A stretch of DNA of 64,000 nucleotides from Cycas panzhihuaensis (taxonomy: Eukaryota > Plantae > Cycadophyta), in NCBI GenBank assembly GCA_023213395.1, contig CM041465.1, positions 225,811,741-225,875,740 of the forward strand. The letters run 5' to 3'. The translations under genes were made by a program, and so were the position numbers. Shown here piece by piece: positions 8,879 to 58,267 of this stretch. Below the pieces are notes generated by a model. It saw only the letters and a list, made by a program, of their open reading frames with translations, was not told the origin of the DNA and did not search any database. Numbering within the stretch: the stretch's first letter is position 1; each line of letters begins with the position of its first letter.

Positions 8879-8880
8879 TT

Positions 8881-17835: not shown

Positions 17836-18001
<166 letters not shown>

Positions 18002-18029
18002 TAATTTCTAAGTGTATAAAAGATAATTA

Positions 18030-29700: not shown

Positions 29701-29931
29701 ATAGATATGGAAGAGTACAAAACTTAGTCATTATGCAGAACAATATAGTAATGTGGAATCTCTATGTCCTAACATGAATCAACCTAAGGCATGATATCCA
29801 ATAATGACAATTTTAACATCACACTCCATGTAGCTATGATATCTCTTTTGTGTATGTCAATCAAGCCTACAATCTAGAGAATGATAATGTGAAGCTAGTG
29901 TGAACTAATGCCACTGAACCTGTGGGTTGAG

Positions 29932-30115
<184 letters not shown>

Positions 30116-30766
30116 CAATTAGGTCTATGGTTTAACAAATGATGTTATAGGACTAATGAGACTATTCACCATTGAATCTACAAAGAAGTTGATGATATGT
30201 AATCAATACAAGGTTATTAATTTAATGAATTACTGGGTGAAACTCATAAACAAATCATTAATGAACCCATCAATATATTTAGAGCATATCAAAGAATACT
30301 TTTTTTTTCTTAGTATCAAATCTTTTGTAATATTTTTTTTATGATCCAAATCTATGATTTAGTGAATGGTTGTGTGAGACTCATAAAAAATTAATCCACC
30401 ATTAAATCTATAGATATGATAATAATCTCATATGATCAAGCATAAGGGACTCAAGATATAAGAGTTACCTTTGAATGTAAGTGAGGAGAAATTAGTTAGG
30501 TCAAGGATGTCTACCTAGTTGCATGAGCATTTAACAAAATATAAATTCCTACATGACTAAAGTATTAACCTATTAGACCAAACTAAGGGAAATTTTAGAG
30601 TGCCAATTACATGTTAATTTATAATTTAGGTCAAGGGCACTAATATATATGAATGTTTATATATGATAGGCCATGACTAAATATTCCAAGTAATCCTATA
30701 TTATAGGGATTATGAGAAATCATATTAGTACATATAATAAGAGTGAGGGATGAAATATATATCATA

Positions 30767-33899: not shown

Positions 33900-36800
33900 C
33901 CCCTTACTTGTAGTTGTCCTCAATAATTCTTCTTTTTTTTTTACATCAAAACATATAAACTAGGTTAGCAAAATAATTTTGGGTATTAATTTTACATAAA
34001 TTCTTCTCTTTTTTGAGTAGCACTATCATCATTACAAAACATTCATTTTATTTAAATTAAAAAAAAACAAAAAAAAACTTATTTATAAGTTGCCTAATTG
34101 TCCTATCCAAACTTTTCTCAAATTTTATAGGGAATTCACTTCTAAGTTTTATGGTTATCTCATTCTATTTAATTAGGTATATTTTTTTTTATTAAGCTTA
34201 CAAAGAATACCCTTTGAATTTTAAATTGAGGATAGAATTTAAGCTCATAGGCTAAATTTCTTATGCATCAAAATATTTCAAAAGGACCATAATATCTAGG
34301 AGTTAACTTTGTGTACTTTTTTAGTTTCAAGGAATTTTGTTTGCCTATAACACAAAGAAAGACTTTATCTTCTAACTGAAATTCTCTAACCAAATGTTTT
34401 AAATCAGTAAAACTTTTCTATTAATCTTGTGTTATCTTTTAATTATTTTTATCTTTATAAATTACATATTCTATTTCTATTAAAACATTATTAAACTACC
34501 ATTTTTGATATATCAGATCAGATTGAGAAATAGGTGTATTATAATTTCTTCCATAAATGGATTCAAAGGGTTACATTTTAATAAAGGAGTGAAAACTATA
34601 ATTATATACAAATTTTACTAAGTGTAAATAATTCTTCAAATGGAAAGGTATTTCAGTAGTATAAATTCAGATCATATCCTTTACTACTTGATTTACCCAT
34701 TCTATTTAGCCATTAGTCTTAGGGTGATAGATAATACTCATTTTAAGAGTAGTTCTTATCTTGTGAAAAAAAAGTTTCCCAAAAACTAGAAGTAAATGAA
34801 GTAAAAAGTTTCCCAAAAATTTCCATCAAATGCAATGCTCTTAGGTACTCTGTGTAACTAAAATATTTTGTTTGCAAATATGTGGGCTATGTCCTTCCCA
34901 ATAGATTTGATTTTAGTAGGAATAATATGTGCTATTTTAGTTAGTCTATATACCACAACTAAGATAATGTCATGACCTTTCAAATTATGGGGTAGACTAA
35001 TGATAAAACCCATACTTATTAATTCTCATTTCTATCTAAGAATGTCTAATAATTATAATAATTCATGAGTTCTACATTGTTCTGCCTTAACTTTTTGGCA
35101 TAAAAGACATTTTTAGACATATTATCATATATTTAGTTTTATTTTAGGATTAAAGAAGTTTTTCCTAATAGATATCCACCTATAGGGATATTATAGGCGT
35201 CCTTTGGAATTTTGCCTTTTATTTTGGGAGTCTTTAGTATGCATAATCTTCTTTTATAATAAAGTAATCCATTATTTGATAAGCCATATTTTTCTACTTA
35301 CTTTTTGTGATTAATATGGCATCAAGGATTTTGGATTTGGGCAAGGATTGGTTGAAAAATGTACATCATTCAAACTTGTTTTTACAAGGGATATAACATT
35401 AATATAACTCCTCTTTTGCCTAAGGGTATTTTCCACCTGCCACCTTATTTTATTTCTCAAGCATATATTGCATATCAAAATCATGTTCTATGATTAATTC
35501 CATCTAATACTCTTGTCACATATTTAAGTGTGATTGCTTAAATATATATTATAAGCTATGATGATCTATGTTTAAGGATAAATTTAACTCCTAAAAAATA
35601 ATGCTACCAAATTTTTAAAGCATGTACAATACTTAGTAATTCTATATCATAGGTGGGGTAATATTTTTTAACATATTACAATTTTCTTAATTTAGAGCTT
35701 ATGACCCTTCCATATTATATTAGAACTCCTCATAATATGTCCTTGTTAGCCTTAATAATTACTAAGTAAGATTTGTTGGGAGTAAGAATATCAAATACAA
35801 ATGTTGTGGTTAATGATTTTTTAAATATACAAAAGGCTTCTTCACATTTTGATGCCCATATAAATACTTCCTCCTTTAGGATTAGGTCTGTCAATGATGC
35901 AATAAATTTGGAATATCCCTTAATAAAATCTTGATAAAATCCTAATAATCTTAGGAAAGTATGTACCTTATGTGTGTCTTTTTGTTGTGACCATTCTTGT
36001 ATAGCTTTTATTTTTTCAGGATTTAAGGCAATACCTTCTTCTAAAATGACATGTCTTAAATATGAGATTTCTATTTTTAAAAATTCACATTTACTTTATT
36101 TAGCATATAACATATATTTCCTTAATTTTTCTAGTACTTTTTGGATGTTTTGTTCATGTTCCATTTTAATTTTTAAATATATCAAGATATTGTCTAAAAA
36201 TATGATCACAAATATATCTAAATATGGTCAAAATACATTGTTCATTAGGGTCATAAAAATGGTAAGCATGTTGGTCAACCCAAAAGGTAAAACAATAAAT
36301 TCATAATATCCATACCTAGTACAAAAAGTCATTTTAAGCATATCCTATTCCTTAATTATAATTTGATTATATCCTAACTATAAATCTATTTTTAAGAAAT
36401 ATTTTACACTATTTAGTTGATCCAAAAGATTGTTAATCCTTAGTAATTGGTACTTACTCTTTATTGTTAATTTATTAAGTTGCCTATAATCAATGCATAA
36501 TCTTAGCGTGTCATCTTTCTTTTTAACAAATAAAACTGGTACTCCATGTGGAGAAATATTGGTCTAATTTTGCCTTGCTCTATTAACTCTTATAATTGTG
36601 CTCTAAGCTCCATTTATTTTAGGATGGATTATTAATATAGAGCCCTTGATATTGATTTTGCTCCAAGTATAAGATCTATTACATGCTCCACTACTCTTTT
36701 TAGGGGTAGTTCCTTAATTTTTAAAGTAAATACATAATTAAATTCTTTAATAATTGGATGACCAATATGATCATTATTACATATTTGGGTGTTTTTAATT

Positions 36801-38236: not shown

Positions 38237-38653
38237 TATAATATTCTAGATCTACAAATTGTACCCAATGACACTTTAGGAAATACTTGAGAGCTTAAAG
38301 ATTCCTTTATTACAATTTCAGAAAACATAAATACATCAATGGAAGGTAAGAAAGCTTAATGATCACCAAAAGGGAATGTACTCTCATATAATCTCAAACA
38401 ATAATAAGATAGTATAAGTGTTTTATTTATAGATATTTGGCCTTATATAGGCAAAATTTGCCACTAACACTAACATCCTATTGGTGGCCCCTTGGTCCCT
38501 CCAATCTCACTGGTGGAGGTATGCAACCGGTACACACTGATTAACAATTATCCTTAACCTTCTCTTCCTTAATCATGTGGTTGTGGTTTAGCCTTAACCT
38601 TCTTTATATAATCAAATGCTCTTATGTCACTAACTTTAGAATGTTGTGTAATA
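38237..38653 (-). repeat. 3' LTR (417 bp) of Reina-like chromovirus
   Basis: Aligns end to end with 62084-62495. PPT AGGGAGAGGGACC on - at 38654-38666. Confidence 0.92.
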
Positions 38654-38669: not shown

Positions 38670-40668
38670 ACATTAAGTCCACGAAGCATTGAAGGTGTGG
38701 GCGTTACTGGATAAATTCTTTAGACTCCCACGTTGCTTCATCAGGATCATAGTTAGTCCACTACACTAAGTACTTAAAAATGGTTCTGTTTTGAAGATAG
38801 TGTTGGCGAGAAGCTAGGATGACCATTGGGGAGATCATAAGGACTTCTTCTTCATGGAGAATAGGGAGGGTTGTTTTAGGTACATCAACTTTTCCAAGGT
38901 ACTTCTTTAGCCAGGACACATAAAAGGTATTATAAATTTTGTAATTTAAGGGGAGGTCCAAGATATAGGCAACTTCACCAATTCCATGAAGAACTTTATA
39001 GGGACCATAGTAACGAGGGATTACCTTTTGGGTTTTTTGATGGCATAGGGATTGTTACTTATAGAGTTGGAGATGAAGGAAGACTAAATCACCCATAGCA
39101 AATACTCTTTCGGATAGGTCGCAATCAACCAATTACTTCATTCATTTTTGAGTTGTTACTAGGTTTTGCTTAATAGTATGTAAAATTTAATCTATGTCTT
39201 GTAATTTTTTGTTCAAAGATTAGTGGCTAACATATGGTGGGATGATGGGGGATACCCATAAAGTGCCATAAATAGGGTTATTCCTATAAAAGATTGATAA
39301 GAGGAGTTATACCAATACTCTACTGGTGCCAACCAAGAAGTCCAATGATTTTGATGGTCTGATATAAAACATTGTAGGTATGTTTCTAATGTTTTATTAA
39401 GGGCCTCTAATTGGCCATTAGTTTAGGGATGATAAGATAAGCTCATGTTGAAAGAGGTTTTAGAAGCCCAAAAAAGTTCTCAATTAGACACAATAGTGGA
39501 TGGGAAGATGTGAAGATGAAAGATAAATTGGATGTAAAGGTCAACTAGTTAGGGGGCTTTATATGTAGTATACACTAGTAAGAAGTAGGTATACTTAGTC
39601 AAGTGGTCAATGATAACCCAAATTAAGTCATAGCCTATAGATAATGATAGCCCCACAATGAAATCCATGAAAATATCTTACCACTTACCTTAGGGAATTA
39701 TTGACAATTAAAGGAGGCCAAGTTGAGCTTTAGTCTTAATATTATTTTATTGGCGTGTTTCATATTAAAAAACATACATGAGGATGCTGGACTTCGTGTG
39801 GGGCCAGTAAAATTATGATCAAATTTGATGGTATGTTTTATCGAACTTGGAGTGATTACTAAGAGGGATATTATGGTATTCATTTAGGATGTAAGGAATG
39901 AATGGAGACACTAGGTGGATAAAAATGTAATTTTGATATAGAAAGTGATTATTATGCAAGGTTCAATATTTATGATTTTGGACTTTATTGGTCCATATGG
40001 CAAAATTAGCCTAAGATTCATTATCATGGACAAGATCATCCATCTAAGAGGGTTGGGGAAGGGAGATGGCTTGAATGGCTGGGTCAACTAGAAGATGAGA
40101 AAGAGCATTTGCAAGCACATTATCCTTGCCCTTTTTATAAGCAATGGAGAAGTTGAAACTTAAAGTTTATTGACCCACTTAACCTATTCTTCTAACAAAA
40201 CTGGTTGGTCTAGTAGGTGTCAAAGGCTAGGGTGGTTAGTTAGAATGGTAAACTTGGATCTAAGTAAATATTAGTTCCACTCATCTATTGTATGAAGAAT
40301 AGCCCACATTTCCTTTTAATATGTTAAAAGGCAACATTTATGGTTTTTGAGCTTTTAACTTTTAAATAAAATAAGATAGAAATTTCATATAAGGACAGAT
40401 CTGATCTTGACACTAAAGGTATCACATTCTATATAAAATGGTTATGAGAAATTAAGGGTAGTGAGGAACAACATAGAGGACATGAATGTTTTTAGGTGGT
40501 CAAAAGCATTGATAGTGCTAAGTAACCATTGAAATAAATCTTTGTGTAGTAAATTTGCCAGGGGGCTACTATAGTAGCATAATTTTTTATAAAGAGACGA
40601 TAAAATCTAGTTAATTCAAGAAAAGCCCATAATTAAGTTAGGTTTTTTCTGTGTGGGCTATTAGATAA
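38670..40668 (-). pseudogene. pol: Chromovirus RT end, RNase H, integrase and chromodomain, decayed
   Basis: YRLFIKNYA, KKGKDNVLANALS, DIFMDFIVGL..VIIDHLTKY, SYHP*TNGQ, YYGPYKVLHGIGEVAYILDLP, and ILASRQHYLQNRTIFKYLV*WTNYDPDEATWE (chromodomain). Confidence 0.9.
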
Positions 40669-43625
40669 TGGGATCATGTCTATGGGGATGGTAACTACAC
40701 CTAACTAGGATTAAGACTATCGATGGAAGGCTCTGGGATAAAGGGATCAAACCAACAAGTGCAAGGAAGCACCCACACAGGGCGTCCGTGCATCGGAACA
40801 CAGGTTCAGCACCCATGAATGGCACACGACTTCCTCTAGGTAACTTAGCTTCTAATTTTGAAGGGGAGCATAGGTGAGGGATGTCCTCGGTTGCTCGAGT
40901 AACCTCGAAACAAGGGTGTTCCCGCCCTTGGATGGCTGGAAGAGGAAGGCAAGACCCAATGAGGAAGCAGGTCCTCATTTGAGGGAAACTAGGGGATGTA
41001 AGTGATATGTGTATAGGTATGATGAGGTAAGCAGGGGATCTTAGGGGATGAATCCTCTAGGAACTAAGCCGCTTGAAGAGGATGTTGGGTGGACAAAGAG
41101 TGGTGGTAGAAAGGGTTCCTACCACTTTATGCGTGAGGGGGTCTAATCTCTATATGCAACAATGGGGTAAAGACTAGTCGTATGTGTGTGCAAATGAGAG
41201 ATATATAAAGCATATATATGCAAAGAACGATAAATATACTTTCCCTCTCAAAGATGAATCCTCATTCTCATTTCATTTTAAACAAGGGAAGGAGAAACAA
41301 AGAGATAGACTAAGATATCATACAAAGTACACAGCAATGTAATTGATCAAAAGAAAAGAAGAGGGGATATCCCTTAACAGATGTTCTTTCCTAAAATACG
41401 AACTAATGTGCAAGATGATGATGTAAGTTGGTTTCCTTTTACTTTATTCCCTTATGTCTTTTCATGCAAACATACAAGCTAAAAGAACTAAGAAAAGACC
41501 AACGAAATGAAAGTGGCATACCTAGAAGAACGATGCAGTTGAAATATGATCTTCATCTTACGCTATACCCACTTCCTCTTTTCCCTTTCCTATCGCATAA
41601 GTAGCGTAGGGTTTCCTTACCTCCCCTAAAATGAAAGGAAAGTAGTAAGAAAATGCAAAGGAAAAAAGGGACTATATAAAGGCTAGAGCAACCAAAGGAA
41701 AGAAGGCTAAGAAACGCACCTGGATTATCGTCGTTTACCTTTATCTACAAATGGCACAGTAAACCTGCAATCATAAAGTTCCTTGCCCTTTCCAAAGAGG
41801 ATGCTAGGATACAAAGCCAATATATATATATTTATGTAATAGTAAAATGCTAAAATATTGCACGTTAGAATGTTTCAAGTTAAGTAATCTTCCACTAAAA
41901 GTAACTCTACAATCTCCCAAGAAAACAAACAATACAAGCTAAGGTAAAGGGGAGGTTAGCCTCAGAATGGCTAACCCTCTGACAATTGCACCTCCACGCT
42001 ACCCTTAGACACAGGAAACAATAGATTAGGATAGCTTATTGGTGGTAGATAGTGAGGGAAACAAATATCATGAGGTTTGTGAAAGTTGCCTATGTTGCAA
42101 GTATGCTACGTGCAGCAAATTACAATGTTGACTAAGTCACAACCCGAGATGGGTGAGGGACACCATTTGGGGCTAGTAGATCTACCCAAGAGAGGTATGC
42201 AGGCCTAGAAACAGTGCAGCAAGGGCTACATACACTGATATCTAACGCAAGCTGAATCCTAAAGACTCCCTGGCAATACAAGAGAGGCACAAGTGGAGGA
42301 GAGGAAAGAGGAGAAAGGGGTTGCCCTTGAGGAGCAGGCCTAGTAGGTATGGGAACCTACCTTGGCTCCTTTCTCTCACTCTTTATGGGTCCTCTCCCAC
42401 AGCCTCCTTGGAAAAACTAAGAGAGGGTAGGGAGATGAAGGGGGCAGAAAAATCAAAAATGGAGGAATACCTCCTGCATACACTAAAATATAAGGAAAGA
42501 AAGGATGTGCCCAAAGATCTAACCTTTTAAAAGTCAATCCAAAGGAAAGACATGGAACAACAATGACATAATACCTGTTGTACTAAGTAGGAAGCAGGTC
42601 TACCCCTAAAAATAGCAAGAGATAACATATCTAATATGCTTACAGGGGATCCTTAGGAGGATGCTCTAATCTGAAGACAAACTTGTTGAAAGATGTAGGA
42701 AGGGCATGGAGGCTAGACTTTGGCATGAATTCTTACTTGGAGATGTTTGTTAGTGAGCCTACTACCACATATCAGAGCTACAATGGGTGGATCTTAGGTT
42801 GGAGCACATGGAACTTGAGTGTTGTAGGGCGTTCCTGTAGAAAACTCCTGTGGAAGAGAGAAAATAAGGTGGAAGAAGAGAAGGAAAATGAGGTTGTTTT
42901 GGGCTTTATACCTAACCCTAGGTTGAATGGACGATTAAGGTTGAGGTAAGGCTCAAGGGGTGTCAAAGCCAAGTAGCAATTTCGTGAATAAAGTGAAAAT
43001 TTCCATGGTAGATTTTAAAAATTATTTTATGACAGTTGCTCACGGTAAACCTCGCAGTACCATGAAGTTTACTACAGTATCACAACATTTGCCACAGTGC
43101 GATGATAAAGACCAAAATAGGCTAAAAAGATGATGCATGGGAGCCTTAAAGAGGGTACCCCAGGCCTAGGAGGGGCCATCCCTCTATCCAGATGTCTGGG
43201 GATAGTCAAATAAAGTAGATGACCTAAACTGGATCGGGTACCAAAGCGGCAGGACTCCCGAGAAACTGATACTAGAGTAAAGATAAACCAATCACACTCA
43301 GCGAGGTGCTAAGGGTTATGATATGGCAAGGGGTGTGACGGATCACATGGGTTGAGTGGTGCCTAGGACAACATGGAGGTGCATAGGAGGGTTATGGAGT
43401 GCCATGGGGATGCATGTCTCAATGATTGTCATAGGCTGAAAGAGTAACAAGCAGTATGATTAAGCAATAGGTGCAAGATGATCACTCAAATGTGTCAGTC
43501 AGCTATGCAACGAAACAATGCTTCTATTTACCTTTCTACATAAGCAGTAAAGACAAAGGATAGAAGCATAGCTACACTTACCTAAGTCGACTTGCCAAGA
43601 ACCCATTCCTAAGAGTTGGGAAACA
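40669..43625 (-). repeat. 3' LTR (2957 bp) of Tat-type element
   Basis: TGGGATCATG..GGGAAACA is collinear with 55300-58262 (about 85-90% by eye, mostly transitions). Confidence 0.96.
42895..42922 (-). promoter_or_regulatory. LTR TATA box (copy at ~57540-57560)
   Basis: - strand TAGGGTTAGGTATAAAGCCC followed by a CT-rich leader, conserved in both LTRs. Confidence 0.55.
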
Positions 43626-43636
43626 CTGCCCCCTTA
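43626..43636 (-). other. Polypurine tract of Tat-type element
   Basis: - strand TAAGGGGGCAG immediately before the LTR TG. Confidence 0.85.
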
Positions 43637-44123
43637 GTAACAGAGCCTCACAACTCAGAGGCGTAATACAACGATGAATGCTGGAAATATAATGTTAGTG
43701 GCACATGTACATACAAAATATAATAATAGTAAAAACTAAGGGTGATGGTGAGTATTATGGTGGAACGCATGGGTGTAGTGGCAAGGGTGAGACAATCATA
43801 GGAGCTGCCTATATGTCATCGTATAGACAATAGGTAATAATAACGAATGAGGGGGATGACCCCATCGTAAGAATAAGATGAATGGGTGGTGAAGGCCACA
43901 TATAAGACTCAATAGATGTCGTGAACAAGGAGCTATATACAGATACAAATCAAGGATAATGAGTATTATGTGTTGTGGTGCTAAGAGTAGACTAAAGAAA
44001 ATAAACCTGGAGGTCGCCATAGTTTAACCTCATTAGTAGCCAACTTTCGGAGGTGCGAACAGATTGTAATATGAAGTGCACGATGACCCAAGACTTGGGC
44101 TCATGGGTGACTCGACAAGTCTC

Positions 44124-44546
44124 TCAAGGTGGGTCACTAAGAAGAGAAAGGCGACGCTCAAGGACGAGGTGAACTAAGCTATTTACCTCAGCGTTGAGAG
44201 CCCGCAGAATATGTCGAATGTCGATGGATGAGAAACAAGACAACAGGGATCTCATAGTCGAGGCAAGGGCTCTTAAGCATGGGCACCGCACCTGATAAAC
44301 CCAAGTGAGATGAGACACCACAACCTAAGAGTCATAAAGGAGAATGATGGGTCCATGGTGGAAGTAGAGTGCATTAGTAAGGGCCTCAATAATAGCTGTG
44401 TACTCAACTTCGTTATTGGTGGCTTTGGGAAGGAAGATCCTGGAATGCATGAAGTCGTGTCTAGAAGGGTCATGGAGAATCCACATAGTGGCAGAGGGGC
44501 CAGGGTTGCCATGACTTCCACCATCGGTAAAAATGAATAAATCCAT
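44124..44546 (-). pseudogene. Stand-alone archaeal-type RNase H (aRH), ~140 aa, one nonsense codon
   Basis: MDLFIFTDGGSHGNPGPSA..ATNNEVEYTAIIEAL..YDS*VVVSHL..RHILRALNAEVNSL. ORFs 44325-44675 and 44124-44321 are in the same frame, separated by one TAG (CAG>TAG). D, E, D catalytic residues are present and the last D is N. Confidence 0.92.
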
Positions 44547-45869
44547 AACAAAAATGAAGGTCTCAATAGAGAGAAGAATGATGATGGGGCTAGTGAGTGG
44601 AGAGGACCCAATAGTAAGAAATCGTCGTAAACGACCGAAATGGTTGTTAACAAAGGCTGAAGGAGGCAGGAACACCCAAAGACAAGGCTACCCGAAGGTG
44701 AAGAGGGTTGTTTGACGGACAAGGAAGGGTTATCCGATGGACAGGGAAGAACCAGCAGTAAAAGGCCCCTTTAGGAGTGCTAAAGGTCGCTCAAGGAGGC
44801 AAAACGCAGTCCTAAACAAGGGGGACACTTCCTTTGGAAACCCCAGATGCGCGAATGGGCAGCGAAAATGGATCCAAGATGGCAAAACGAGTATAAACTC
44901 AAGTATATATGGAGGCGACATGTAAAACGAGGTAGAAGGGGCCTCGCAAGGCCAAAGAAGGAGCGCCACAAATGCACCCGGCAGGTCCAAAGAAAAAGAA
45001 GGCCATAGGGGCAAAATTGGAGATGGACCTAGAAGGTAAAGGTAATCATGGAAAGGAGACAGTCTCAAGGGCTGTCACGATGAGAGAAATGAGAGAAGTG
45101 CCCGTCGGGGCCCCGGCCTATATAAAGGAAACTCGGTGAAAATGGAATTCATTTTCACAGGCTCGCGAACGATTCAGAGCCCTTCCCCTTACGCAACGAA
45201 GCGTTGCCCAACTTCGAAGGCACACAGGGAGAGATCTGACTGCTAGATTAGGACGCAGAGATAGCCGATGAGACCAGGGAGATGAGATGGCAGTAGTGAG
45301 ACCAGATCCAGTGAGTGGATTACTCGTACCCAAACCCATTTCATCATTTGAATTTCGTTAATTTTTAATAGTTTTAATGTAGTTTTGGGCCCCTTAAGGA
45401 TAAATAGTGATCTCCCAGAGTCCAAATTAGACCCAACGAGAGGTGAGACCAAGGCATTAAGCAACCCTGGTCCTTGTGGGTCTAAGTGTGACCCACCTAG
45501 GCAAAAATATTTTATCTTTTAGGTAGGAAACCCACCCATTTTGAGGGGTGACGTTGGCACCACAGAAAAAATTGCATTGCCACGATCTTTACTGTGGGGC
45601 TGGTGAGACATGGATAAAATCTTAATAGGCCCCATGCTAAACTCTGCGATACCACAGAGTTTAGTGCAGTGCAAGGGCAGACTAGCTAAAAAATATAAAG
45701 GATGGCCCGAAGGACAGCCAGACCTCAATCTAAGAGGAGTGAGAGGCAGTCCTGAAGGCAGGCAAGTAGATTTGGCTGGATTTTGACTAGTTTTTGGGGT
45801 GTTTTGCAGGCAGTTATTGTGGTGGACAACCACGAGAATATAGGAGTGGCCATATTCACTTTCATTGAG

Positions 45870-47744
45870 ATGATGACTCAAGGAGATTGACGAGTGCTAG
45901 GGAGATGCGGCCTATTGAAGGCCATCAGGATGCCATAATATATGTTAGACTAGCACCTCCTAGTGGACATTATCTCACACTGGGATCGACGGAGGTATAT
46001 GTTCCATCTCCCCCAAGTGGGAGATGTCACAGTCACACTAGGAGATGTTAGGAGGATCCTAGGAGTACCAATGGTAGGAGCACTAGCATCACTAAGCGCA
46101 TTGCCTAGTAATGACGTTGAACATAGGGAGGCAGCGACCTATTTCACATGTCAGGACCAGTGGGAGAGTAGAGGCATACCAGTCCAGAGTATGATCATGT
46201 CTAGGATTCCTTGTGTGAGGAAGTTGATTACACTGTGCATTCTATTCTGGATATCCTGGAAACAAAATTATAAGGACATGCCTGGCAGATGGATGGATAT
46301 GTTAACGAGATGTGAATTCAGGGAGAGATTGGTCTGGGCTACCTTGATAGCAGCAAATTTGATTGCCTAGCTAGATGCCATCAGGGTAGCAGGGAGAGGA
46401 GGACTGTCATACAACATATTATTACAGTGCTGGTTCTTTAATCACTTTGGAGCAGTGGCACCACCGGGAGGGCCCCACTTGATCTCAGTTTGGGCTTTTA
46501 TAGTCCACAGGTGGCAGACTTAATTCAGGGAAATCAATGACTAGGTACATATCAGGCACTCAATGGAGGCCACATCACTAGACCTCCTCACCATGGAAGA
46601 CTACACATCATATCTGTATAGAGGGGTAAGGTGGGATAGTGATGATGAGGTAGGAGGAGTAGGAGGTGCCCGTGGCGAGGGAGACGATGATGATGGAGGT
46701 GATGGAGATGATGAGGCCAGCCCATCAGGAGTAGTAGGTGGAGAGGTGGGTCCATCAAGGACCGTAGGAAGAGAGGCAGGGCCATCAGGAGCCACAGGTG
46801 TAGAGGCAGGTCTACCAGGGACTATAGAGAGAAGTGGAGCTTCTCAGACACCGGTCCGGAAGCTGAGGATAGTTAGGAGAGCCCAGGCAGTGGCAGCATC
46901 AGCATAGGAGGGTGGAGGTGCCCCGACAGGCTAGGCAGTCGAAGAGGTGGTACCAGAGGAGGAGGAGGTACCAGTAGTGGATGGACGACCCGAGGAGGAG
47001 GTGATCATCTGAGTCAGGGAGCCGACAGTTCCAGCAGGTGAGATACTACCCTTTTCCCTTCATCTTTCGATCACCAGCTATCTAGTTGTTGTACTTTATT
47101 TAAATTATTTGGTGAACTTATGGATGTGTATACTGACACGTGGCATGTTAGATTTTGTAGGAGTGGTGGACATCGGGAGGTTGATTAAGGCGATAGTCCG
47201 AGAGACGTTTCCCTGGATCTACACTAAGGGACAGCCTCCTATCCAGGTAGGGGAGGAGCCATGGTCGGCAAGAGACCACATGGCAGCATTCACCCCTTTA
47301 GTTAGGGCCAGAGATGTATGGGCAGTAGAGTCCTAAGAGCACGAGGTGAGAATAGGATGACTACAGGGAGAGCTAAAGGTGACCAAAGCAGAGAGAGATG
47401 CTCTACGAGGCCAGGTCCAGACTCTAGAGGATCAGGGAGGAACTGGTGGTAATGCAGAGAGTCACATTAGGATAGCGATACTAGAGGAGCAGCTCTAAGG
47501 AGTGGAGGGTAAGAGGGATCGTATCAAGACACGATACGATCAGCTAGTGGGTCAGATGGCATCGAGGCCATCGAGGAGCATGACATATACTCACACAATA
47601 GCGATGACCCTGAGGAGGTCTTAGGATGAGGGGAGCGAGGCAAGGACCTCCCAAAGGCGTAGGAGGAGTCTCAGAGGCATGTGATCCCCAAGAGAGGGAT
47701 CACATAGACCAGGAGATGACACCCTAGGAGTAGGGCAACACTAG
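45870..47744 (+). pseudogene. Antisense accessory gene: plant mobile domain (PMD), acidic/Gly-rich linker and coiled coil; predicted intron 47038-47160
   Basis: LLVDIISHWDRRRYMFHLPQVGDVTVTLGDVRRILGVPMVG, LVWATLIAANL and LLQCWFFNHF match the PMD motifs (ERW..T.TFHLP.GE.TITL.DV..ILGLP..G; SWG.AVLA.LY; LLQ.W). ORFs 45963, 46563 and 47109 share one frame, broken only by point stops. Confidence 0.85.
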
Positions 47745-48406
47745 TGAGTAGGATATATTAGTTTTTAATATGGGAAAGCACCGGACCTCCAGGGAGTCAC
47801 CATATATCATCACATGATCGTACTCTTCCCTGCAAGGATTCCAGCTTCTCGCAAATGATGTACCATACCATTTGTATGATATGACACATGATGATAAATG
47901 ATGTATATTTGCTTTTATGCGTATGTATATATATATGTATGAGGGTGCAAGGATGCACGATGAGCTGTATGTTATGATGTTTTTTTTTTTTTAGTTGATT
48001 ATCATATAGTTTATGATGGAGGATTATTTGAGCTACACATACTTCCTTTCATGCAGGTCCATACTCCTAACAGGCACACAGACAATTACCATGAGCAGAG
48101 GCGATGGACATATGTGAGGCTAAGAGGTAGGGTGGCACACATGTCCACATGGGAGCATAGTGGGATATGCAAAAGAAGCGTTAGTGGGAAGGGAGTGAAG
48201 ATACTCCTAGGAGTGACAGAGGCAATACACCCAATTAGGAAGATGGGGCCCTAGAAAAGTGGGACAAGAGGTTCCATGAGAAGAAACCTAAAGAAGCAAG
48301 AAGGCCACACTAAGCCGCCATCCCACCTGTGACTAGGGGGAATGGGGATACACCTAGGGTGGTAGTTTAGGCTCATTTTGGAGCGCATAGAGAAGAGTGA
48401 CATAGT

Positions 48407-49700
48407 CATGCATAAATTTTTTTTAGGAATTTCCCATTAACAACCTTCTTAAATTCGAGGCCCTCTAGGGTGGCGATCCTGTAAGCGTCGTTCCCAAGAC
48501 TCTCGAGAACAACAAAAGGGCAACCCATTTGGGTCCGAATTTGGTCAGGCTATCATGGACATATTCTAGTTTGAGGACGTAGTCCTCAGGATGTAAAGGA
48601 TAGGAATGAAGGTGTTTATAGTAAGTCCTCCATACACTAGCCTTAGAGGCAAGGTTGACCTGGTAGGCGGCTAAGCATTTCTCATCCAAGGCCTCGAGGT
48701 CTAGGAGATCAGGCTGGCAGATAGACTCCTCGTCGATAAGACCTCAGAGAGAGACCCGCATAGAAGGAATCTCCACTTCCAATGGGAGAACTGCCTCCAT
48801 CCCATAGACTATGGAGAAAGGAGTCATTCTCGTAGCCATACAGATAGATGTGCAATACGTCCATAGAGCAGAAGGGAGTTGAAGATGTCAATCTCTTTGA
48901 GATTGGGTAACGGTTTTCTTTAGAATATTTATAAGAGTTTTGTTAAACGATTTGACTTGGCCATTGGCCTGGGGGTAGTAAGGAGAGGAAGTTTTATGAG
49001 AAATGTTGAATTTCTCACAAAGCTAACCCATCTCTTTATTACAAAAAGGAGTTATGTTATCCGTGATTAGGGCATCAGGAACCTCGAAGCGGTAGATAAT
49101 ATGTTGATAGACAAAGGTGGCTATCATCTTATCAGGAGTAGTAGTCAAAGGAATGGCTTCCACCCATTTAGTAAAGTACTTTGTAGCAGTTAATATGAAC
49201 TTGTGCTGCAATGAAGAGGATGGGGATATGACTCTAATGAGGTCCAACCCCCATTAGGAGAAGGGCCATGGAGATATAATAGGGTGGAGAGCCTCGGAAG
49301 GCAAGTGGGTGATGTTGGCATGCTCCTAGCATCGCCGACATCTCATGGCGTAAGCATGGGCATCCTTAAAGAGGGATGGCCAATAGTATCCCATATGGAG
49401 GATCCTTTGGGCCATGGATTAGCCCCCAAAGTGGCCCCTGCAAATCTCATTGTGGCATTCACAGAGTATCTAGTTCACTTCATTGAGAGTGACACAGTAA
49501 AGAAGGATCCCATCGAAGGATATCTTGTACAATACCTCACTCATAAGGAAGTACTGCCTGGTAGTAGCTTGAATACAAGACCTAACTTTATCGCTAGCAT
49601 CAGGGTGATACTACTGTTGAGTGAGGTATTGTACGATATCCCCATACCACTCACTATCAGCAAGCAGATAAGGAGAGGAGTCCTGAATAGCCAGGATGGG
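48407..49700 (-). pseudogene. pol: Tat-type integrase
   Basis: HNEICRGHFG..GYYWPSL, PWPFS*WGLDLIRVISPSSSLQHKFILTATKYFTKWVEAIPL, SSPYYPQANGQVKSFNKTL and KFGPKW..AYRIATLEG..VNGKFLKKFYA*. Confidence 0.93.
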
Positions 49701-49789
49701 CTTGTCAAGGAGAGTGTCATCAATAGGAATGTCCAAAGGGTTCAAGATAGGAGTGTCAATGATCTGCTCAGCCACTACCATCCCCTTCT

Positions 49790-50150
49790 TTGACTTCCTG
49801 TTAACGATGTAGAGGTTAAATTCCTAAAGGAGAACGGCCCACTTGCCGATCTTACTTGTTAGGTCGGGTCGGGTGAGTAAGTAGTGCAGGGGAACGGATT
49901 GAACGATCACCTGAGTAGTATTCCCAAGCAAGTAATGCCTGAACCTCTTGGTTATATGTACCAAGGAGAGGCATTCCTTCTCCGCAGAGGAGTAATTGAG
50001 TTCAATAGCCACGAGGGTGTGACTAATGAAGTAAATAGCCCTCTCAGCTCCTGAACCATCCTCCTGGGCTAACATGGTGCCCATAGATTCATCAATTACT
50101 GAGGTATATATGATAAATGGCCTATCAAAAAGAGGGAGCACCAATGTCAG
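49790..50150 (-). pseudogene. pol: Native RNase H, degenerate (tether-like)
   Basis: RPFIIYTSVIDESMGTMLAQ..NYSSAEKECLSLV..RFRHYLLG..IVQSVPL..KIGKWAVLL, with the TDAS and TDH aspartates absent. Confidence 0.9.
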
Positions 50151-51110
50151 GGTAGAAACGAGGGCTTCCTTAAGTTCTTCAAAGGATCATTGGGCCTTAG
50201 AAGACCAAATAAACAGGGCCCCCTTCTTTAATAGGTTAGTGAGCGGTTTGGCATTTATGGCGAAGTTCACCAAAAAAGGCCTGAGGAAACCAAGCCTACC
50301 TAAAAATGACTTAATCTGTCATTGGGTTTGAGGAGGTGGCATGTTAAGGATGGCCTTGACTTTATCAAGGTCAATTTGGATCCTTTGCTTTGACACAAGG
50401 AAACCAAGGAATTTGCCAACTATCACGGTAAACATATATTTAAGAGGGTTGAGGCTTACATGGTATTTGCGGCATTGTATTAAGATGGCCTGCAAATCAG
50501 AAGGGTGATGGGCTCTGACGTGTGAGAGACCCATCATGTCATCCATGAAGACCTCCAAGGATTTGTTGATAAGATCGTGAAAAATGAACTGCATCTCCCT
50601 TTGATAAGTGGCGCCTGCATTCTTAAGTCTGACAGGCATCGCCTTATAGGCAAAAGTACGCTACGGAGTGGTAAAGGCCATCTTATGATGGTCTTTATAA
50701 GAGATTTAAATTTGGTTATAGCCAGAAAAGCCGTCCATTAAGGATATGACTTCGAAAACAGTAGTTCGATCGATAAAGGGAAGTGGGAAATTATCCTTAG
50801 GACATGTGTTATTGATGTTACAGAAATCAACATATATCCGGATTGTCCCATTTTTTTTAGCAACGGGGACAATGTTAGACACCCACTTAGGGTAGTCGAT
50901 GGAAGTGATTAATCCTGCATTTAGGAGTTTCTCAACTTCTATTTTTACAGTAGCTAAGAGCTTAAGGTGAAGAGGGTGTTGCTTCTGATGCACGGTGTGA
51001 GCACCAAAAATAGTGGTAACGTTGTGGGTCACGATTGAAGGATCAATTTCCTTTATATTAGAGTAGTCCCATATAAAAACATCTCAAAACTCCTAGAACA
51101 AAAGGATATA
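50150..51110 (-). pseudogene. pol: Reverse transcriptase
   Basis: WVSNIVPVAKKNGTIRIYVDFCNINNTCPKDNFPLP, SLMDGFSGYNQI and MPVRLKNAGATYQREM..EVFMDDMM. Confidence 0.95.
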
Positions 51111-51959
51111 CTCCTTCACTTCATTAGAAGAGCATTCCACCCCTACCTTAATGACTTTGCCTAGGGCAAGGACTATGTCCTGGGTTGCCCCCACGCACAT
51201 GGCATTCCCCTCTTCAAAGTGGAGGGGGCTTAGTCAATAGGAAGGGATGGAATGGGGGATGGAATTGGGTCAGCGAGAGAAGACCTAATAGCCAAGACCT
51301 TCTAATAGCCAAGCCTATGGTGACTAGAAGTAAGGTTGGGTGCAGAGCCCGCTAAGTGCTCAAGCAAGGCTTCATCATTCTCAAAGTAGTCCACCCCCAT
51401 GGATGATCATACTTTGAGAAGATGAAGGGTGAAGGGAAGTAGAGACAGCAGGACCATGGTGGTCGTCACGCTGCTCGTTGTACCCGACAGACTCCATGGA
51501 AGAGTCGGGGAGAGGTCCCTTACAAGGGACAACGTGAGGCTCCCCAACCTCGTTACTTTTGTGCGACAACGAAGGGGAGGACTCAAGGAGCACCTGATCA
51601 ACAAGGGCGATGACATGAGACATAAGAGAAGAACTAGTCTCTCCAACTATAAAGGTTCCAGAGTAGGATCTAGAATGAAAGAAGTGCCCTCTACTCATGC
51701 CCAGAAGGGAAATTGGGTGAGGGAGATCCTCATCCTCGCCATTAGACTCATCGTCACTAAGTATGGCAAGGTACCCGTAACTTCCAACACCAATAGGGGT
51801 GAAACACATAGGGTTGGAAGAAGAGGATGAAGGGTCTTCTTCCAAAAGAGATGAGTTAGGGATGTCAATAGAACAAGCAGAGGCATGGGTAGAAAGGCCT
51901 TTATCACCTTTCGCTTGGCCATGACCTACTTGACGGGATTGACATAGTTGTTTGGTGGG

Positions 51960-52330
51960 AGGAAGCTCCCAGGAGATGACTCTCATTCGCCCTTCATGGA
52001 TGAATTTAGGTTGTCCCCAGTGGGACGAGCACATGGCCCCCATCTGATCGAGCCATGGGCATCCTAACAAAAGATTATAGTCGACGTCAATGTCGAGAAC
52101 TACAATATTAGCGAGGACAGTCTTGTCCTCAAGAGTAAGCAAGATAGACACTAATCCCAAGGGTGTCTTTTCACTACCATTGTAGCCTTGACACCGCCAT
52201 GGAACTAGTCCTAAAGTTGATATGCCAAGCTCTTGCATAATGCGCAAGGGCATAGCATTAATAGAAGAACCATTGTTGACAATGATTCTTCGTAAAGTAT
52301 AATCTGGAGTATCGATGGTAATAGTGAAAG
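51960..52330 (-). pseudogene. pol: Aspartic protease
   Basis: RRIIVNNGSSINAMPL (catalytic D>N) and VLDIDVDYNLLLGCPWL. Confidence 0.88.
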
Positions 52331-52699
52331 GGAAATGCCATTGGCGCTCCCTTTCGCTAGTAGGGGAAGATCCTTCAGATCAAAAGAGATGACGGGCTCA
52401 CGACTCAGGGTGAGACCCAAGGCGTAAACAGGTGTGTCACCCAATCCTAAAGCCTCTAAGAGTAGTGTGTGTTGTTCAGGGTAGCTCCTCAAGATGTCCA
52501 TTATGGACATTCTGGCAGCCACAGTATGAAGCTCATTAACGACAGAGAAAGGCTTCTCCTTTATAGTGGGTTAGGGAAGAACCATTTGAAAGTCATAACA
52601 ACTGGGGCACACAAAAATAGTCTTGGGGAGTACAGGGTCTTCCGGAAGAGAAGTTTTCAGAAGAGGATCAAGGTGAGATATAGACGAGAGGCACAGTTC

Positions 52700-55135
52700 C
52701 CCTCTTTGATCGCTTGAGACCAGGTTAAAGCGTACAATGGGGTAGTCTCAAGCAACTGAATGACCTTCTTTCCCTTATTCTAAGATCGCAAAGGTGAACG
52801 AGTATGTCGGTTAGGGAAACCCGAGGAAGAGGACAAATTCCTTACATCCTTCCTTTTGGCTTGTGAAGGGAGAGGGTTTGGAGACCTCCCTCGGTTTCAG
52901 TTATTCTTTTGTTAGGGGTTACGATCACGTTCCCCGTATTTGGGGAAGGGATCTCTATGAACGAGCTGGTCTAGGTTGGGCCTAGACACCCGTTTAGGGA
53001 AAGAGTCGCATTGCGAGGTAGCCTTAAGATACTGTACTCGACACTGAGAATCATCGTGGAAGCACTCCCCATGGATGGAGCACCACTTCTTCTCAAGGAA
53101 GGAGTCAAGTTTTCTCGCTTAAGAGGATTGGGTATTACCACCCCTGGAAGCAGCGGCTTGGGAAGCCTGGTGAACTAACTTATTAGACGTGGGAGATGGA
53201 GCCTGGAGCTTGAGCTCCTTCATAGTTCATTCAAATGAATGTATGGCTAAAGTGAGAGGGTCTAGGGTCTTCTCGATAGAATGGGAAGAAGACCTAGTGG
53301 GTTGCTGAGTTTTGGTTTCTTTTAATGGTGGTGGTGCCTCATGTCGCTATGAGGACTTTAAAGGCTTCTTGAGTCCAGTATGGATCTCAATGGCCTCGAG
53401 TGCCAAGCACTTCGCTATGGCAGAGTCGCATGTAGTTGCCCCAATCTTAAGGACTTCTACATGGACTTCTGGGTGAAGGCCATTGACAAAAAGGTCCCTC
53501 TTCAACTCCTCGGGCAAAGTAGCCTTAGTGGAATGAAGAAGGTCATGCAAATACCACACAAAGTCATGATTCATTTCATCGTGACCTTGTCTAAGCAACA
53601 GAAGGGATTTCATTCCACTCTCAAATGGGCAAGCCATGTCAAAGTAATTGACGAACTCATCCATGAGCTGCTAGAATGAGAAGATAGAATGCACGAGTAG
53701 GAAATAAAACTATTTGAGGATGTCGCCTTGAAGAGATCACAGAAATAGTTTCATGAGGATGTGGTCATAGGACTAGTAGTCAATGCATGCCATAGAGAAA
53801 CTATGAACATGCTCTATTGGGTCTTGCAACGAAGTCCCATCGAATTTGGGGACTTGAGGAAGGTGAGGCAGTAAGTTAGTTCTTAACGCCTCAATAGATA
53901 AAGGAGTTGACTGATAGTCCATAAAAGGATGCACCCTCGACTGGACTATAGGATCAACATAAGCTAGAAATGATGGCGGGTAGGTTTGCCCAAATCCTCC
54001 TTGGAGGGTTTGGTTTGAAAGGGGATGTTATCCTCCTACTGCTTGGTGAGGAGGCACAAATCCCACATTCAAAGAAACCTGCATGGGAGAAGATAGGTAT
54101 GACATACCTATCCCTCCTAGAGAGTATGCTCCTTGTTGAAAAGAAGCTTGAGGGAATAAGCCTTGGGAAGGAGTTGGCCCTCCTTACAAAGGCGTGATAT
54201 AAGGTGTCATACAAGATGGCGAAAAGGAGGGGTGAGGAACCAGATTCTGCCTATATAGGCTGCTTGTGGACGGTGCGATCCCATAAGGATGCAAAGGGTC
54301 CACCCTATAAGCAGGTAGGGAGTTCCCTTTACCATGCCCCCATGGTTGAGTAGTGTAACCGGGAGGCACATAAAGAGAAAGGTCCCTAGGTTGGTATTGA
54401 AAGTGTGTGGGGATGGACCCCACGTGACTAGAAGTAGGGGGACATGTGGGTTCCCTAGGTCTAGTAGGTGGATAAACAATGGTGGGAGGAGGACTAGTGG
54501 TTTGACTAGTTAGGGACATGCTCAACCTGAGTTGGAAAGATGACATGCCCTGAGTGGTCCCCAAGGAACATACATCATTAGGGGAAGAAGAAGAGGTAAA
54601 AGGCATGCTCATCATGGGTATATCAACTAAACGATATGAGTGAGATGAAGGAGATATAGAAGAAGGGGGCACAATGCTTCGTAAGACGTTCTCAAACCAC
54701 TTTTGGTGTGGTTGGAGATGGGCAGCTTAGAAACATTAGCTCAAGGCTTCTGCTACATTGGCAAGAGGGGTATCTGAATGATCGTAAGAGGTAGAAGGGG
54801 CCTCATACAAAGCAGACCCCGTAAGATGATCCTCATAAGAATCACCATGGTGGTGGTGAAACTCTAAAGGGATGAAGGTTTTGCTCCATGAGTAGAGGAA
54901 TAGTGAGACTGGGGGTGTGGCTAGTCACCTAGATAATAAATGGGATCTTCGCTTCCTTGGGCAGACCCTTGGAAGGAAGTAGGTGGCTTAAGGGAATCAA
55001 ACACATAAGCGTGGTATGCCTAATCTGAAAGAGATCCCTCCATGATCAGATTGGGATCCGATGTGGGAAGGGAATCATATAGGGGCTCTTCCAATAACGG
55101 AGGTAGGCCTCACAAGGGACGTGAGAATCGTCATA
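52700..55135 (-). pseudogene. gag: Tat-type gag with Pro/Ser-rich N-terminus and zinc knuckle
   Basis: VPKFDGTSLQDPIEHVHSF..ILMKLFL*SLQGDILK*F..MDEFVNYF..LRQGHDEMNHDFV..FVNGLHP and WCSIHGECFHDDSQC (Cx2Hx4Hx4C). Confidence 0.85.
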
Positions 55136-55280
55136 TGCAAGTCCTGCCTATGCTCTAAAAGAAGAGAGAAACAAGGTAGTGTACATGTTAGGGGATGCCT
55201 AATAAGATCAAAAGGGAAAGCTACCAAGATATAGTAGCACCAACAAAAAAGGGAGAAAGATTAATTCCCTTACTGGCAGG

Positions 55281-55298
55281 TCCCTAGTATGGTCGCCA
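55281..55298 (-). other. Primer binding site, tRNA-Arg type
   Basis: - strand TGGCGACCATACTAGGGA 1 nt after the LTR CA, resembling the TGGCGACTCxxCTGGGGA PBS of Ogre/Tat elements. Confidence 0.8.
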
Positions 55299-55299
55299 G

Positions 55300-58262
55300 T
55301 GGAATCACATCTACAGGGATGGTAACTACACCTAGCTGGGATTAACACTATGGACGGAAGGCTTCGGGATAAAGGGATCAAATCAATAAGTGTAAGGAAG
55401 CATCCACACAGGGTATCTATGTGTCGAATGCAGGTTTAGGACCCATGAATGGTGCACGACTTCCTCTAGGTAACTTAGCTTTTGATTTTGAAGGGAAGCG
55501 TAGGTGAGGGATGTCCTCGGTTGCCCGAGTGACCTCGAAACAAGGGTCTTCCTGCCCTTGAATGGCTGGAAGGGGAAGGCAAGAACCAGCGAGAAAGTAG
55601 GCCCTCGTGGAGGGAAATTAGAGGATGTAAGTGATATATGTGTAGGTATGATAAGGTAAGTGGGAGATCTTAGGGGACAAATCCTCTAGGAACTAACCCA
55701 CTTGAAGAGGATGTTGGGTGGACAAAGAGTGGTGGCAGAAAGGATTCCCGCCACTTTATGCATGAGGGGGTCTAATCTCTATATGCAATAATGGGGTAAA
55801 GACTAGTCATATGTGTGTGCAAATGAGATATATATAAAGCATATATGTGCAAAGAACGATAAATATAGTTTCCCTCTCAAAGACGAATCCTCACTCTCAT
55901 TTTGTTTTAAATAAGGGAAGGAGAAACAAAGAGATTGACCATGATATCATACAAAGTGCACGTCAATGCAATCGATCGAAAGAAAAGAAGAGGGGATATA
56001 CCCTAAGAAATGTTCTTTCCTAAAATGTGAACTAATGTGCAAGATGGTGATGCAAGTTGGTTCCCTTTTACTTTACTCCCTTATGTCTTTTCATGCAAAC
56101 ATACAAGCTAAAAGAAGCAAGAAAAGACTGACAAAATGAAAGCGACGTACTTAGAAGAACGATGCAACTAAAACGTGATCTTCGTCTTGCACTACACCCG
56201 CTTCCTCTTTTCCCTTTCCTATCACATAGGCAGCGTAGGGGTTTCCTTACCTCCCCCAAAATGAAAGGAAAGTAGTAATATAATGCAAAGGAAAAAAGGG
56301 ACTATATAAAGGCTGGAGCAACCAAAGGAAAGGAGGCCAAGAAACGCGCCTGGATTGTCGTCATTTACCTTTCTCCGCAAATGCTGCAGCAAACCTACAA
56401 TCACAAAGTTCTTTGCCCTTTCCAAAGGGGTTGCTAGGATACAAAGCCAATATATGTATATTTATGTAATAGTAAATGCTAAAATGTTACACGTTAGAAT
56501 GTTTCAAGTTAAGTAATCTTCTACTAAAAGTAACTCTACAATCTCCCAAGAAAACTAACAACACAAGCCAAGGTAAAGGGGAGGTTAGCCTCGGAATGGC
56601 TAACCCTCTGACAAGTGCACCTCCACGCTACCCTTAGACATAGGAAACAGCAGATTAGGATAGCCTATTGGTGGTAGATAGTGAGGGAAACAAACATCAC
56701 GAGGTTTGTGAAAGTTGCGTATGTTGCAAGTATGCTACGTGCAGTAAATTGTAACGTTGGCTAAGCCACAACCCAGGATGGGTGAGGGACATCGTTTGGG
56801 GCTAGTAGAGCTACCCAAGAGAGGCATGCAGGCTTGGAAATAGTGTAGCAAGGGCTACATACACTGATATCTAGTGCAGGCCAAATCCCAAAGACTCCCT
56901 GGCAATACAAGAGAGGCACAAGTGGAGGAGAGGAAAGAGGAGAAGGGGGTTACCCTTGAGGAGCAGGCCTAGTAGGTATGGGAACCCACCTTGGCTCCTT
57001 TCTCTCACTCTTTGTGGGTCCTCTCCTGTAGCCTCCTTGGAAAAACCAGAAGAGGGTACGGAGATGAAGATGGCAGAAAAACTGGAAATGAAGGAATACC
57101 TACTACATACACTAAAATATAAGAAAGAAAGGATGTGCTCAAAGATCTAACATTTTACAAGTCAATCCAAAGGAAATACATGGAACAACAATGACATAAT
57201 ACCTGTTGGGCTCAGTAGGAGGTAGCTCTGCCCCTGAAAACAATAGGAGATAGAAGATCTGATATGCTTACAGGGGATCCTTAGGAGGATGTTATAATTT
57301 GAATACAAACTTACTGAAAGTTGTAGGAAGGGCGTGGAGGCCAGACTTAGACATGAATCCTTACTTGGAGATGTTTGTTGATGAGCTTATTATCATGGAT
57401 TAAAGCTACAATGGATGGATCTCAGGTTGGAGCACAAGGAACTTGAGTGTTGCAGGGCGTTCCTGTAGAAAACTCCTGTGGAAGAGAGAGAGAAGAGAGA
57501 AAAGAAGGTGGAAGAAGAGAAGGAAAATGAGGTTGTTTTGGGATTTATACCTAACCCTAGGCTGAATGGACGATTAGGGTTGAGGTAAGGCTCAAGGGGT
57601 GTCGAAGCCAAGTGGCAATTTTGTGAAATTTTTAAAATTTACCATGGCAAATTTTAAAAAATGTGTTATGACAGTCGCCCTGCGGCAAACTTCGTAATCT
57701 GAAGTTTCTGCGTCTCATGACATTTTCCGGTCATGATGTGACAGAGACCAAAATAGGCCAAAAAGAGGATGCCTGGGAGCCTTAAAGAGGGTACCCTAGG
57801 CCTAGGAGGGGCCAACCCTCTATCTAGATGGCCGGGGACAGTTAAATAAAGTAGATGACCTAAACCAAATGGGGTACCGAAGCGGCAGGACTCCCAAGAA
57901 ACCAATAACTGGAGTAAAGATAAACCAATCACACTCGGCGGGGTCCTAAGGGTTGTGATATAGCAAGGGGTGTGACGAATCACATGGGCTAAGTGGTGCC
58001 TAGGACAACATGGAGATGCATAGGAGGGTTATGGAGTGCCATGGGGATGCATGTCCCACTTATCGTCATAGGGTAAAAGAGTAACAAGCAGTATGATCAA
58101 GCAACAGGTGTAAGATGATCACTCAAATATGTCAGTCAGTTATGCAACAAAACAATGCTTCTATTTACCTTTCTAGAGAAGCAGTAAAGGCAAAGGATCG
58201 AAGCATACCTGAACTTACCTGAGTCGACTTGCCAAAAACCCATTCCCGAGAGCTGAGAAACA
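55300..58262 (-). repeat. 5' LTR (2963 bp) of Tat-type element
   Basis: TGGAATCACA..GAGAAACA, adjacent to the PBS. Confidence 0.96.
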
Positions 58263-58267
58263 GACAA

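Follow-up and report, generated by a model that had tools for sequence, protein, structure and literature searches.

Two divergent genes in a probable Tat retrotransposon

A stretch of 64,000 nucleotides (nt) from the cycad Cycas panzhihuaensis (GCA_023213395.1, contig CM041465.1, positions 225,811,741 to 225,875,740), referred to here as the window, contains a complete, decayed Ty3/gypsy long terminal repeat (LTR) retrotransposon of 17,594 bp on the minus strand (40669-58262), which likely belongs to the TatIII lineage of gymnosperms. Between its integrase (INT) and its polypurine tract, two genes point away from each other, with start codons 740 nt apart: a stand-alone gene for an archaeal-type RNase H (aRH) on the strand of gag-pol, and a gene for a PMD protein on the opposite strand (Table 1). 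A preliminary description of this DNA, made from the letters alone, had read the same two genes within a complete element, and for the second gene a PMD, an acidic region and a coiled coil. All of this is borne out by profile matches (Pfam RVT_3, E 1.1e-12, and RNase_H, 4.3e-08, for the aRH; PMD, E 1.2e-10, over residues 34-266 of the antisense frame), by the linker and heptads of the PMD protein, and by LTRs, primer binding site, polypurine tract and target site duplication in their expected places.

The aRH gene is short and its stop count has no significance (141 of 2000 shuffles were as open), so that the domain match carries the case. The catalytic residues D8, E48, D72 and R115 are kept, and this copy has Asn122 at the fourth acidic position. 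R115 aligns with the active-site arginine of the four best-matching solved structures, 4e19, 3u3g, 4h8k and 3hst (E 5e-15 to 6e-11, against 7e-05 or weaker for the 24 that follow), which we take to be archaeal-type enzymes. At base 44183, in the fourth acidic site, 64-85% of the contig depth in three DNA sequencing runs, and all of it in run X24 (see below), reads otherwise; since other copies differ, the loss at Asn122 looks private to this copy.

From the integrase stop to the aRH start there are 3859 nt, which hold the whole PMD gene, and a gap of this size excludes a Pol fusion in one open reading frame (ORF). Among the best 150 of 5532 matches in a 1.84-billion library, three close relatives (P0009, P0011 and P0012) are 62-67% identical to aRH, and all three have methionine in the start column. 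In P0009 this is an internal residue (38), and therefore a real Met codon. P0006, 44% identical, is a complete ORF of 142 amino acids (aa). No long protein above 43% identity is present among these matches, and 7 of 154 stored proteins reach 42% identity over 60 residues, the longest having at most 257 aa. The relatives are fragments from short contigs, and a Pol-fused form could therefore exist elsewhere. A tree of 155 rows and 140 columns, made by a quick method, groups the aRH of the window with its three close relatives (SH-aLRT 99), and then with P0006 and P0032 (91); deeper forks are unsupported and no origin is claimed. A word-based search gave two distant matches among 31 candidates, and none of 551 pattern matches in a metagenome scan was confirmed. 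An N-terminal extension was considered and rejected, as the upstream frame, with 2 stops in 176 codons, is open to a degree not beyond chance (739 of 2000 shuffles).

The native RNase H (RH) of Pol has serine at two of the three positions aligned to acidic residues of Ty3, which are presumably the catalytic ones, and the serine codons are more than one change away from Asp. Since the native enzyme lacks two catalytic acidic residues, aRH likely acts in trans for the element, in agreement with the preliminary description.

The antisense PMD gene and its probable splicing

The PMD frame (45810-47744), free of frameshifts, runs over 644 codons and has 14 stops, against 25-61 in the other five; none of 2000 dinucleotide shuffles had 14 or fewer in its best frame (mean 31.8). 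Its stop density, 2.2 per 100 codons, compares with 1.7 in the pol frame. The frame of about 600 codons first reported stands, but it includes a 123-nt in-frame intron and is probably preceded by an upstream exon. In exon 3 alone the stop count is not significant (255 of 2000 shuffles), and here again the domain matches carry the case. The coiled-coil heptad score was equalled in 0 of 1000 shuffles, and the best of five structure models shows two long helices (pLDDT 84-92; the other four were poor). Exon 3 has a weak Pfam match to Striatin (E 0.008), and the structure prediction for the PMD itself was poor (mean pLDDT 34 from 4 sequences). Three PMD relatives with 57-66% identity align without gaps and carry residues at all four stop positions that they span. 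The variant sites listed (40 of 2287) include two of the 14 stops, and other copies differ at both. A full-length search gave no match among 7994 scored candidates of 354-1127 aa; a shorter one gave three fragments, none extending to a splice junction. Judging from the sequence, the gene probably begins in a first exon upstream, with ATG 45287.

Splicing was assessed with read contigs placed on 43400-49400 in 30 bins. They come from DNA runs X1, X2 and X4 of three coded organisms and from a single run, X24, with a guessed RNA label and the same species label as the DNA run with the best match; of the joints between contig parts, 15 of 331 and 12 of 46 were listed. Two different X24 contigs lack intron 2, one skipping 135 nt with 12 between and the other 124 nt with 1 between, a net 123 nt each. 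Of 23 start positions for a 123-nt intron, just one, giving 47038-47160 on the plus strand, has GT-AG, GC-AG or CT-AC ends. One of the two contigs, 2138 nt long and aligned from 45834 to 47767, is like a near full-length mRNA, and the alignment of X24 record 20 reaches 47767, the record ending 76 nt later. In the DNA runs intron 2 is present, with 19-30 contigs at 47115 in each. Thus it appears that the PMD gene is probably spliced at intron 2, in relatives of this copy, if X24 is RNA.

All three DNA runs cover 30 of 30 bins, and their contigs tile most of the intergenic region; the module is therefore family-wide. A nested insertion, considered as a source of the PMD gene, was rejected, since self-BLAST of 43626-48500 gave the self match only, with no repeat or inverted end. 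X24 is without cover in 4 of 30 bins, including 45410-45610 (inside predicted intron 1) and 44606-44806, which is not counted as evidence. A joint of 44038 to 48357, skipping both accessory genes, occurs in one contig each of X1 and X4 with a short side of 21 nt, and is possibly a deletion derivative needing aRH in trans, or a chance joint.

The region between the two genes

CpG is less depleted in 44547-45310 (observed/expected ratio 0.71) than in five other parts of the element (0.29-0.52), which hints weakly at lower methylation. A TATA-like block lies 168 nt upstream of the PMD start codon. A pyrimidine-rich patch starts about 25 nt from it on the aRH side and strand, and a TATA-like motif also stands at a loose end common to 51 DNA contigs of X4. 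These motifs point to a likely internal promoter for the PMD gene, and aRH may be driven by an internal promoter as well. A TATA-like block in the 5' LTR (56298-56314), with a counterpart in the 3' LTR, resembles the internal block at 45119 and has the same orientation, antisense to gag-pol.

The retrotransposon and its surroundings

Over 2946 aligned bases, the LTR pair differs by 256 transitions and 71 transversions (88.9% identity; Kimura two-parameter distance 0.123). Reverse transcriptase (RT), RH and INT have Pfam matches and lie in this order between the LTRs; INT has one frameshift close to its end in this copy. RH passes directly into INT with no aRH between them, and three frames of 51084-55269 gave zero Pfam matches to an RNase H between protease and RT. 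The gag match in the same region is sub-threshold, with nothing stronger. The primer binding site may be of the tRNA-Arg type.

Table 1. Features of the Tat element and its two accessory genes (window positions).
Feature	Position	Strand	Basis or remark
Target site duplication, left copy	40664..40668		Right copy 58263-58267; 4/5 bases equal
3' LTR, 2957 bp, TG...CA	40669..43625	-	LTR alignment
Polypurine tract	43626..43635	-	Sequence
aRH, 140 aa, 1 internal stop	44124..44546	-	ATG 44546, stop 44124
740 nt between start codons; candidate internal promoter(s) and 5' untranslated regions	44547..45286		Putative function
TATA-like block	45119..45127	+	Motif match alone; better consensus towards PMD, weaker towards aRH
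PMD gene, predicted first coding exon, 8 codons	45287..45310	+	ATG 45287 in phase 0 with donor 45311
Predicted intron 1, 499 nt, GT-AG	45311..45809	+	Consensus donor, T-rich acceptor; 3/5 candidate donors in phase
Exon 2: PMD domain (~45909-46607), then acidic Gly/Ser-rich linker	45810..47037	+	Pfam, frame
Intron 2, 123 nt, GT-AG, 41% T, in frame	47038..47160	+	X24 contigs
Exon 3: two coiled-coil segments (~47349-47564), basic tail	47161..47744	+	Heptads, model
T-rich stretch with TGTA motifs	47745..48000	+	Candidate 3' untranslated/polyadenylation region
Integrase, own stop codon at end (48408-48406)	48406..49730	-	Domain match
Reverse transcriptase and native RNase H	49731..51083	-	Pfam, Ty3 RT match
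gag and protease region	51084..55269	-	Protease-like stretch in RT frame; both recognised by eye
Primer binding site, 1 base past 5' LTR	55281..55298	-	Sequence
5' LTR, 2963 bp	55300..58262	-	LTR alignment

The Tat element interrupts the RT region of a chromovirus that is older and has the same orientation (38240-62492), with 411-bp repeats (38240-38650 and 62087-62492) that are 85% alike; a protease-like match precedes the insertion, and RH, integrase, SH3 and chromodomain follow it. Elsewhere in the window, 8431-13315 is likely a young non-autonomous LTR element: its LTR-like pair (8431-8880 and 12923-13315) is 98-99% alike in ungapped parts, its interior of about 4 kb gave no Pfam match in six frames, and its middle is strongly T-rich and internally repetitive. 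An older direct repeat pair of 393 bp, 80% alike and 3.2 kb apart, lies at 23166-26744. Short open frames at 7713-8036 and 35730-36095, by eye a Tat-type RNase H fragment and an RT fragment, gave no retroelement-family Pfam match at E 0.05. At 17754-18081 and 29852-30130 there are long microsatellites of (AT)n and (ATAC)n.

Comparison with known Tat lineages and PMD genes

TatIII (REXdb), Tat lineage III (Ustyantsev 2015) and structure 3 with clusters Tat H and I (Biryukov and Ustyantsev 2023) are names for one group. PMC4408406, PMC6317226, PMC13468544, PMC7264820, PMC11963269, PMC5418596, PMC9289625 and 10.1101/2024.09.27.615353, and in part PMC10508981, are represented here by excerpts, to which the statements below apply. 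The present element shares with TatIII the order gag-protease-RT-RH-INT-aRH, aRH in a separate ORF, a degenerate native RH, a protease in the pol frame, an antisense PMD ORF in the 3' part, and a 5-bp target site duplication (4/5 bases equal here; 92% of 39 elements, PMC6317226). It differs in its length, slightly over the 12,682-17,270 bp range of those 39 elements, with LTRs of 2.96 kb; in the place of PMD, which lies head to head with aRH and separates it from INT, as compared with text descriptions rather than structure figures; in the coiled coil after PMD, which the excerpted text of PMC4408406 gives for lineages IV and V only; and in the PMD-gene intron, unstated in the excerpts on the lineage.

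In gymnosperm lineage III, aRH has been placed after INT as the Pol C-terminus, together with an antisense 3' PMD ORF (PMC4408406). The 39 TatIII elements also have aRH after INT, and their primer binding sites are mostly for tRNA-Arg (64%) or tRNA-His (15%) (PMC6317226). Structure 3 of Pinaceae, Cycas and Ginkgo has aRH in a separate ORF, the way it functions being called an open question, and a degenerate native RH is reported for all aRH-bearing Tat structures (PMC10508981); PMD was not found in the supplement of that paper. A post-integrase aRH in a separate ORF is likewise given in PMC13468544, which calls the reports on its Pol membership 'controversial' and whose excerpts mention no PMD, antisense gene or promoter. 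The main text of PMC10508981 has the structure 3 aRH 'upstream of pol', its own Table S3 gives INT.aRH, and PMC13468544, of 2026, gives the 3'UTR; 'upstream of pol' is probably a slip in the text.

The novelty first suggested for the combined layout is largely refuted, since a separate-ORF aRH after integrase (PMC10508981, PMC13468544) and an antisense 3' PMD ORF (PMC4408406) have both been published for TatIII or structure 3, as has their joint presence in the lineage, and the layout is probably the lineage norm. The order INT-PMD-aRH, a shared promoter and introns in the PMD gene are unstated in the available texts of PMC4408406, PMC6317226, PMC10508981, PMC13468544, PMC7264820, PMC11963269, PMC5418596 and PMC9289625, and the structure figures and the REXdb element table may show the order. 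Thus the PMD gene between integrase and aRH, the conserved start Met of aRH and the PMD intron appear undescribed in the excerpts on the lineage.

Ogre (Tat lineages IV and V) is similar in its PMD with a coiled coil, its antisense 3' position in lineage V and its large LTRs; however, its aRH is fused in pol between RH and INT, its protease is fused to Gag, and its hosts are angiosperms. Neither the aRH position between RH and INT inside pol, as in Ogre/Retand, nor that between protease and RT, as in TatI and TatII (structure 2), is found here. In Retand, maize Grande gene23 is also an antisense accessory gene between pol and the 3' LTR, with its own promoter and a nuclear product (PMC7264820, PMC11963269), but it encodes a TRP28 domain instead of PMD, its aRH is inside pol, and no second divergent gene is reported in the excerpts. 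Arabidopsis MAIN, MAIL1 and MAIL2 (PMD-C) share the Pfam PMD domain with the present gene, whereas they are host genes of another PMD clade than the gypsy-borne PMD-A.

A possible mechanism and its alternatives

A proposed scheme for this element can be described as follows. LTR-driven genomic RNA would yield Gag and a Pol with a dead RH, in keeping with the lost acidic residues and with an aRH that begins far beyond the integrase stop at its own conserved Met. The free 140-aa aRH may enter the particle and, acting in trans for RT, cut the RNA strand of RNA/DNA hybrids. The PMD gene would have its own spliced antisense mRNA, as in the relatives if X24 is RNA, and retrotransposition would leave its introns in place, since the genomic RNA carries them as the opposite strand, from which they are never spliced out. 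A short sense RNA encoding aRH may also begin in the intergenic region and terminate in the 3' LTR. Grande gene23 is a precedent for an antisense ORF with its own promoter (PMC7264820). By analogy with PMD-C proteins, which are motif-binding and counteract silencing by Polycomb (10.1101/2024.09.27.615353), a nuclear PMD-coiled-coil protein might bind element DNA and oppose host silencing. Overall, we incline slightly to the whole of this reading, in which a decayed gymnosperm TatIII-type element carries two back-to-back genes, an RNase H replacing the crippled RH of Pol and an antisense spliced PMD gene, both transcribed from the 740-nt region. Expression of the two genes independently of gag-pol, as the preliminary description had it, is supported in part, by the own start of aRH and, in relatives, by the spliced antisense transcript of the PMD gene.

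Several points weigh against this reading. The present copy is dead, with 14 + 1 stops, and the X24 contigs, from one run taken as RNA by guess, are 80-87% relatives rather than this copy. A DNA form lacking intron 2 may exist beyond the joints listed; intron 1 is predicted from consensus splice sites; and none of the contigs listed crosses integrase, PMD and aRH. In P0011 and P0012 the first residue is a start assigned by a gene caller. The TATA block suits the PMD direction better than that of aRH, and X24 contigs at 44885-45241 and 44990-45164 run straight across it; such contigs are compatible with genomic RNA driven by the LTR, with overlapping starts or with carry-over of DNA, but not with a clean divergent split. 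Contigs can show neither start sites nor strands, and none was observed. Furthermore, retrotransposon PMDs are PMD-A, a clade distinct from the PMD-C of MAIN and MAIL1 (PMC5418596), and the excerpts of PMC5418596 and 10.1101/2024.09.27.615353 contain no demonstration of a function for retrotransposon PMD-A proteins.

It is possible, if on balance doubtful, that aRH is instead expressed in the manner of env. Its message would then be a subgenomic transcript initiated in the 5' LTR, with a splice acceptor shortly before the aRH gene; PMD alone would use the internal promoter, and the head-to-head layout would be incidental. The aRH occupies the env position (sense, between pol and the 3' LTR), where barley Bagy2 is spliced (PMC7264820), and four acceptor-like sites lie upstream of it on the minus strand, of which 44657 has a pyrimidine tract; the direction of the TATA block and the X24 contigs across it would also fit. 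However, no joint into aRH is found among those listed, for a covered region of 43400-49400 with the LTR leader outside it, on the aRH strand the pyrimidine-rich patch lies near the block, and the whole intergenic region has retained more of its CpG.

It is improbable that the element carries the PMD gene as a passenger, or that this gene works mainly as an RNA, its antisense transcript pairing with genomic RNA and damping the element via small RNAs, with no silencing-related role for the protein. About 2.7 kb of genomic RNA would be complementary to the PMD mRNA, and such a role has been proposed for antisense ORFs (PMC7264820); an antisense ORF of at least 250 codons is present in just 18% of the 39 TatIII elements (PMC6317226), though decay and introns would lower this count. 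Against this, the frame is kept over 644 codons, relatives align to the protein without gaps, splicing is in frame, the coiled-coil periodicity is intact, and 43626-48500 holds no repeat or inverted end marking a nested insertion. Finally, it is very improbable that aRH is a C-terminal domain of Pol joined by splicing a 3.9-kb PMD block out of the sense RNA, as suggested by its placement at the extreme C-terminus of the putative Pol in lineage III, the splicing of Ogre within gag-pol (both PMC4408406) and the rather open frame upstream of aRH, since the integrase finishes with its usual tail and stop, that frame is not significantly open, the close relatives share the Met at the domain start with no long one among the best matches, and PMC10508981 calls aRH a separate ORF.

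The favoured reading of two back-to-back genes has a bolder extension, which we regard as rather unlikely: a self-contained divergent unit in TatIII, in which one bidirectional promoter would drive a free RNase H essential to RT and a spliced PMD-coiled-coil anti-silencing protein that keeps promoter and LTR open. The anti-silencing role is suggested by analogy only. If true, an essential replication enzyme would be split from Pol, co-regulated with a counter-defence factor and lendable to other copies in trans.

Implications for the Tat family

Papers disagree on whether the post-integrase aRH belongs to Pol (PMC13468544), and how it could work from a separate ORF is asked in PMC10508981. Because 3.86 kb and a whole antisense gene lie between, and because aRH has its own Met, the present element favours a separate ORF with its own start rather than a part of Pol. 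The predicted promoter between the genes would explain the production of a separate RNase H, and the question is narrowed to a 740-nt region. A review calls for looking at antisense and spliced transcripts (PMC7264820), and the contigs described here are a first sign of splicing of the PMD gene; introns in this gene would explain an undercount in surveys based on ORF length. Since structure 3 is common, making up 12-47% of aRH-bearing Tat elements in eight of nine Pinaceae genomes and 68% in Cycas (PMC10508981), the answer would apply to many copies.

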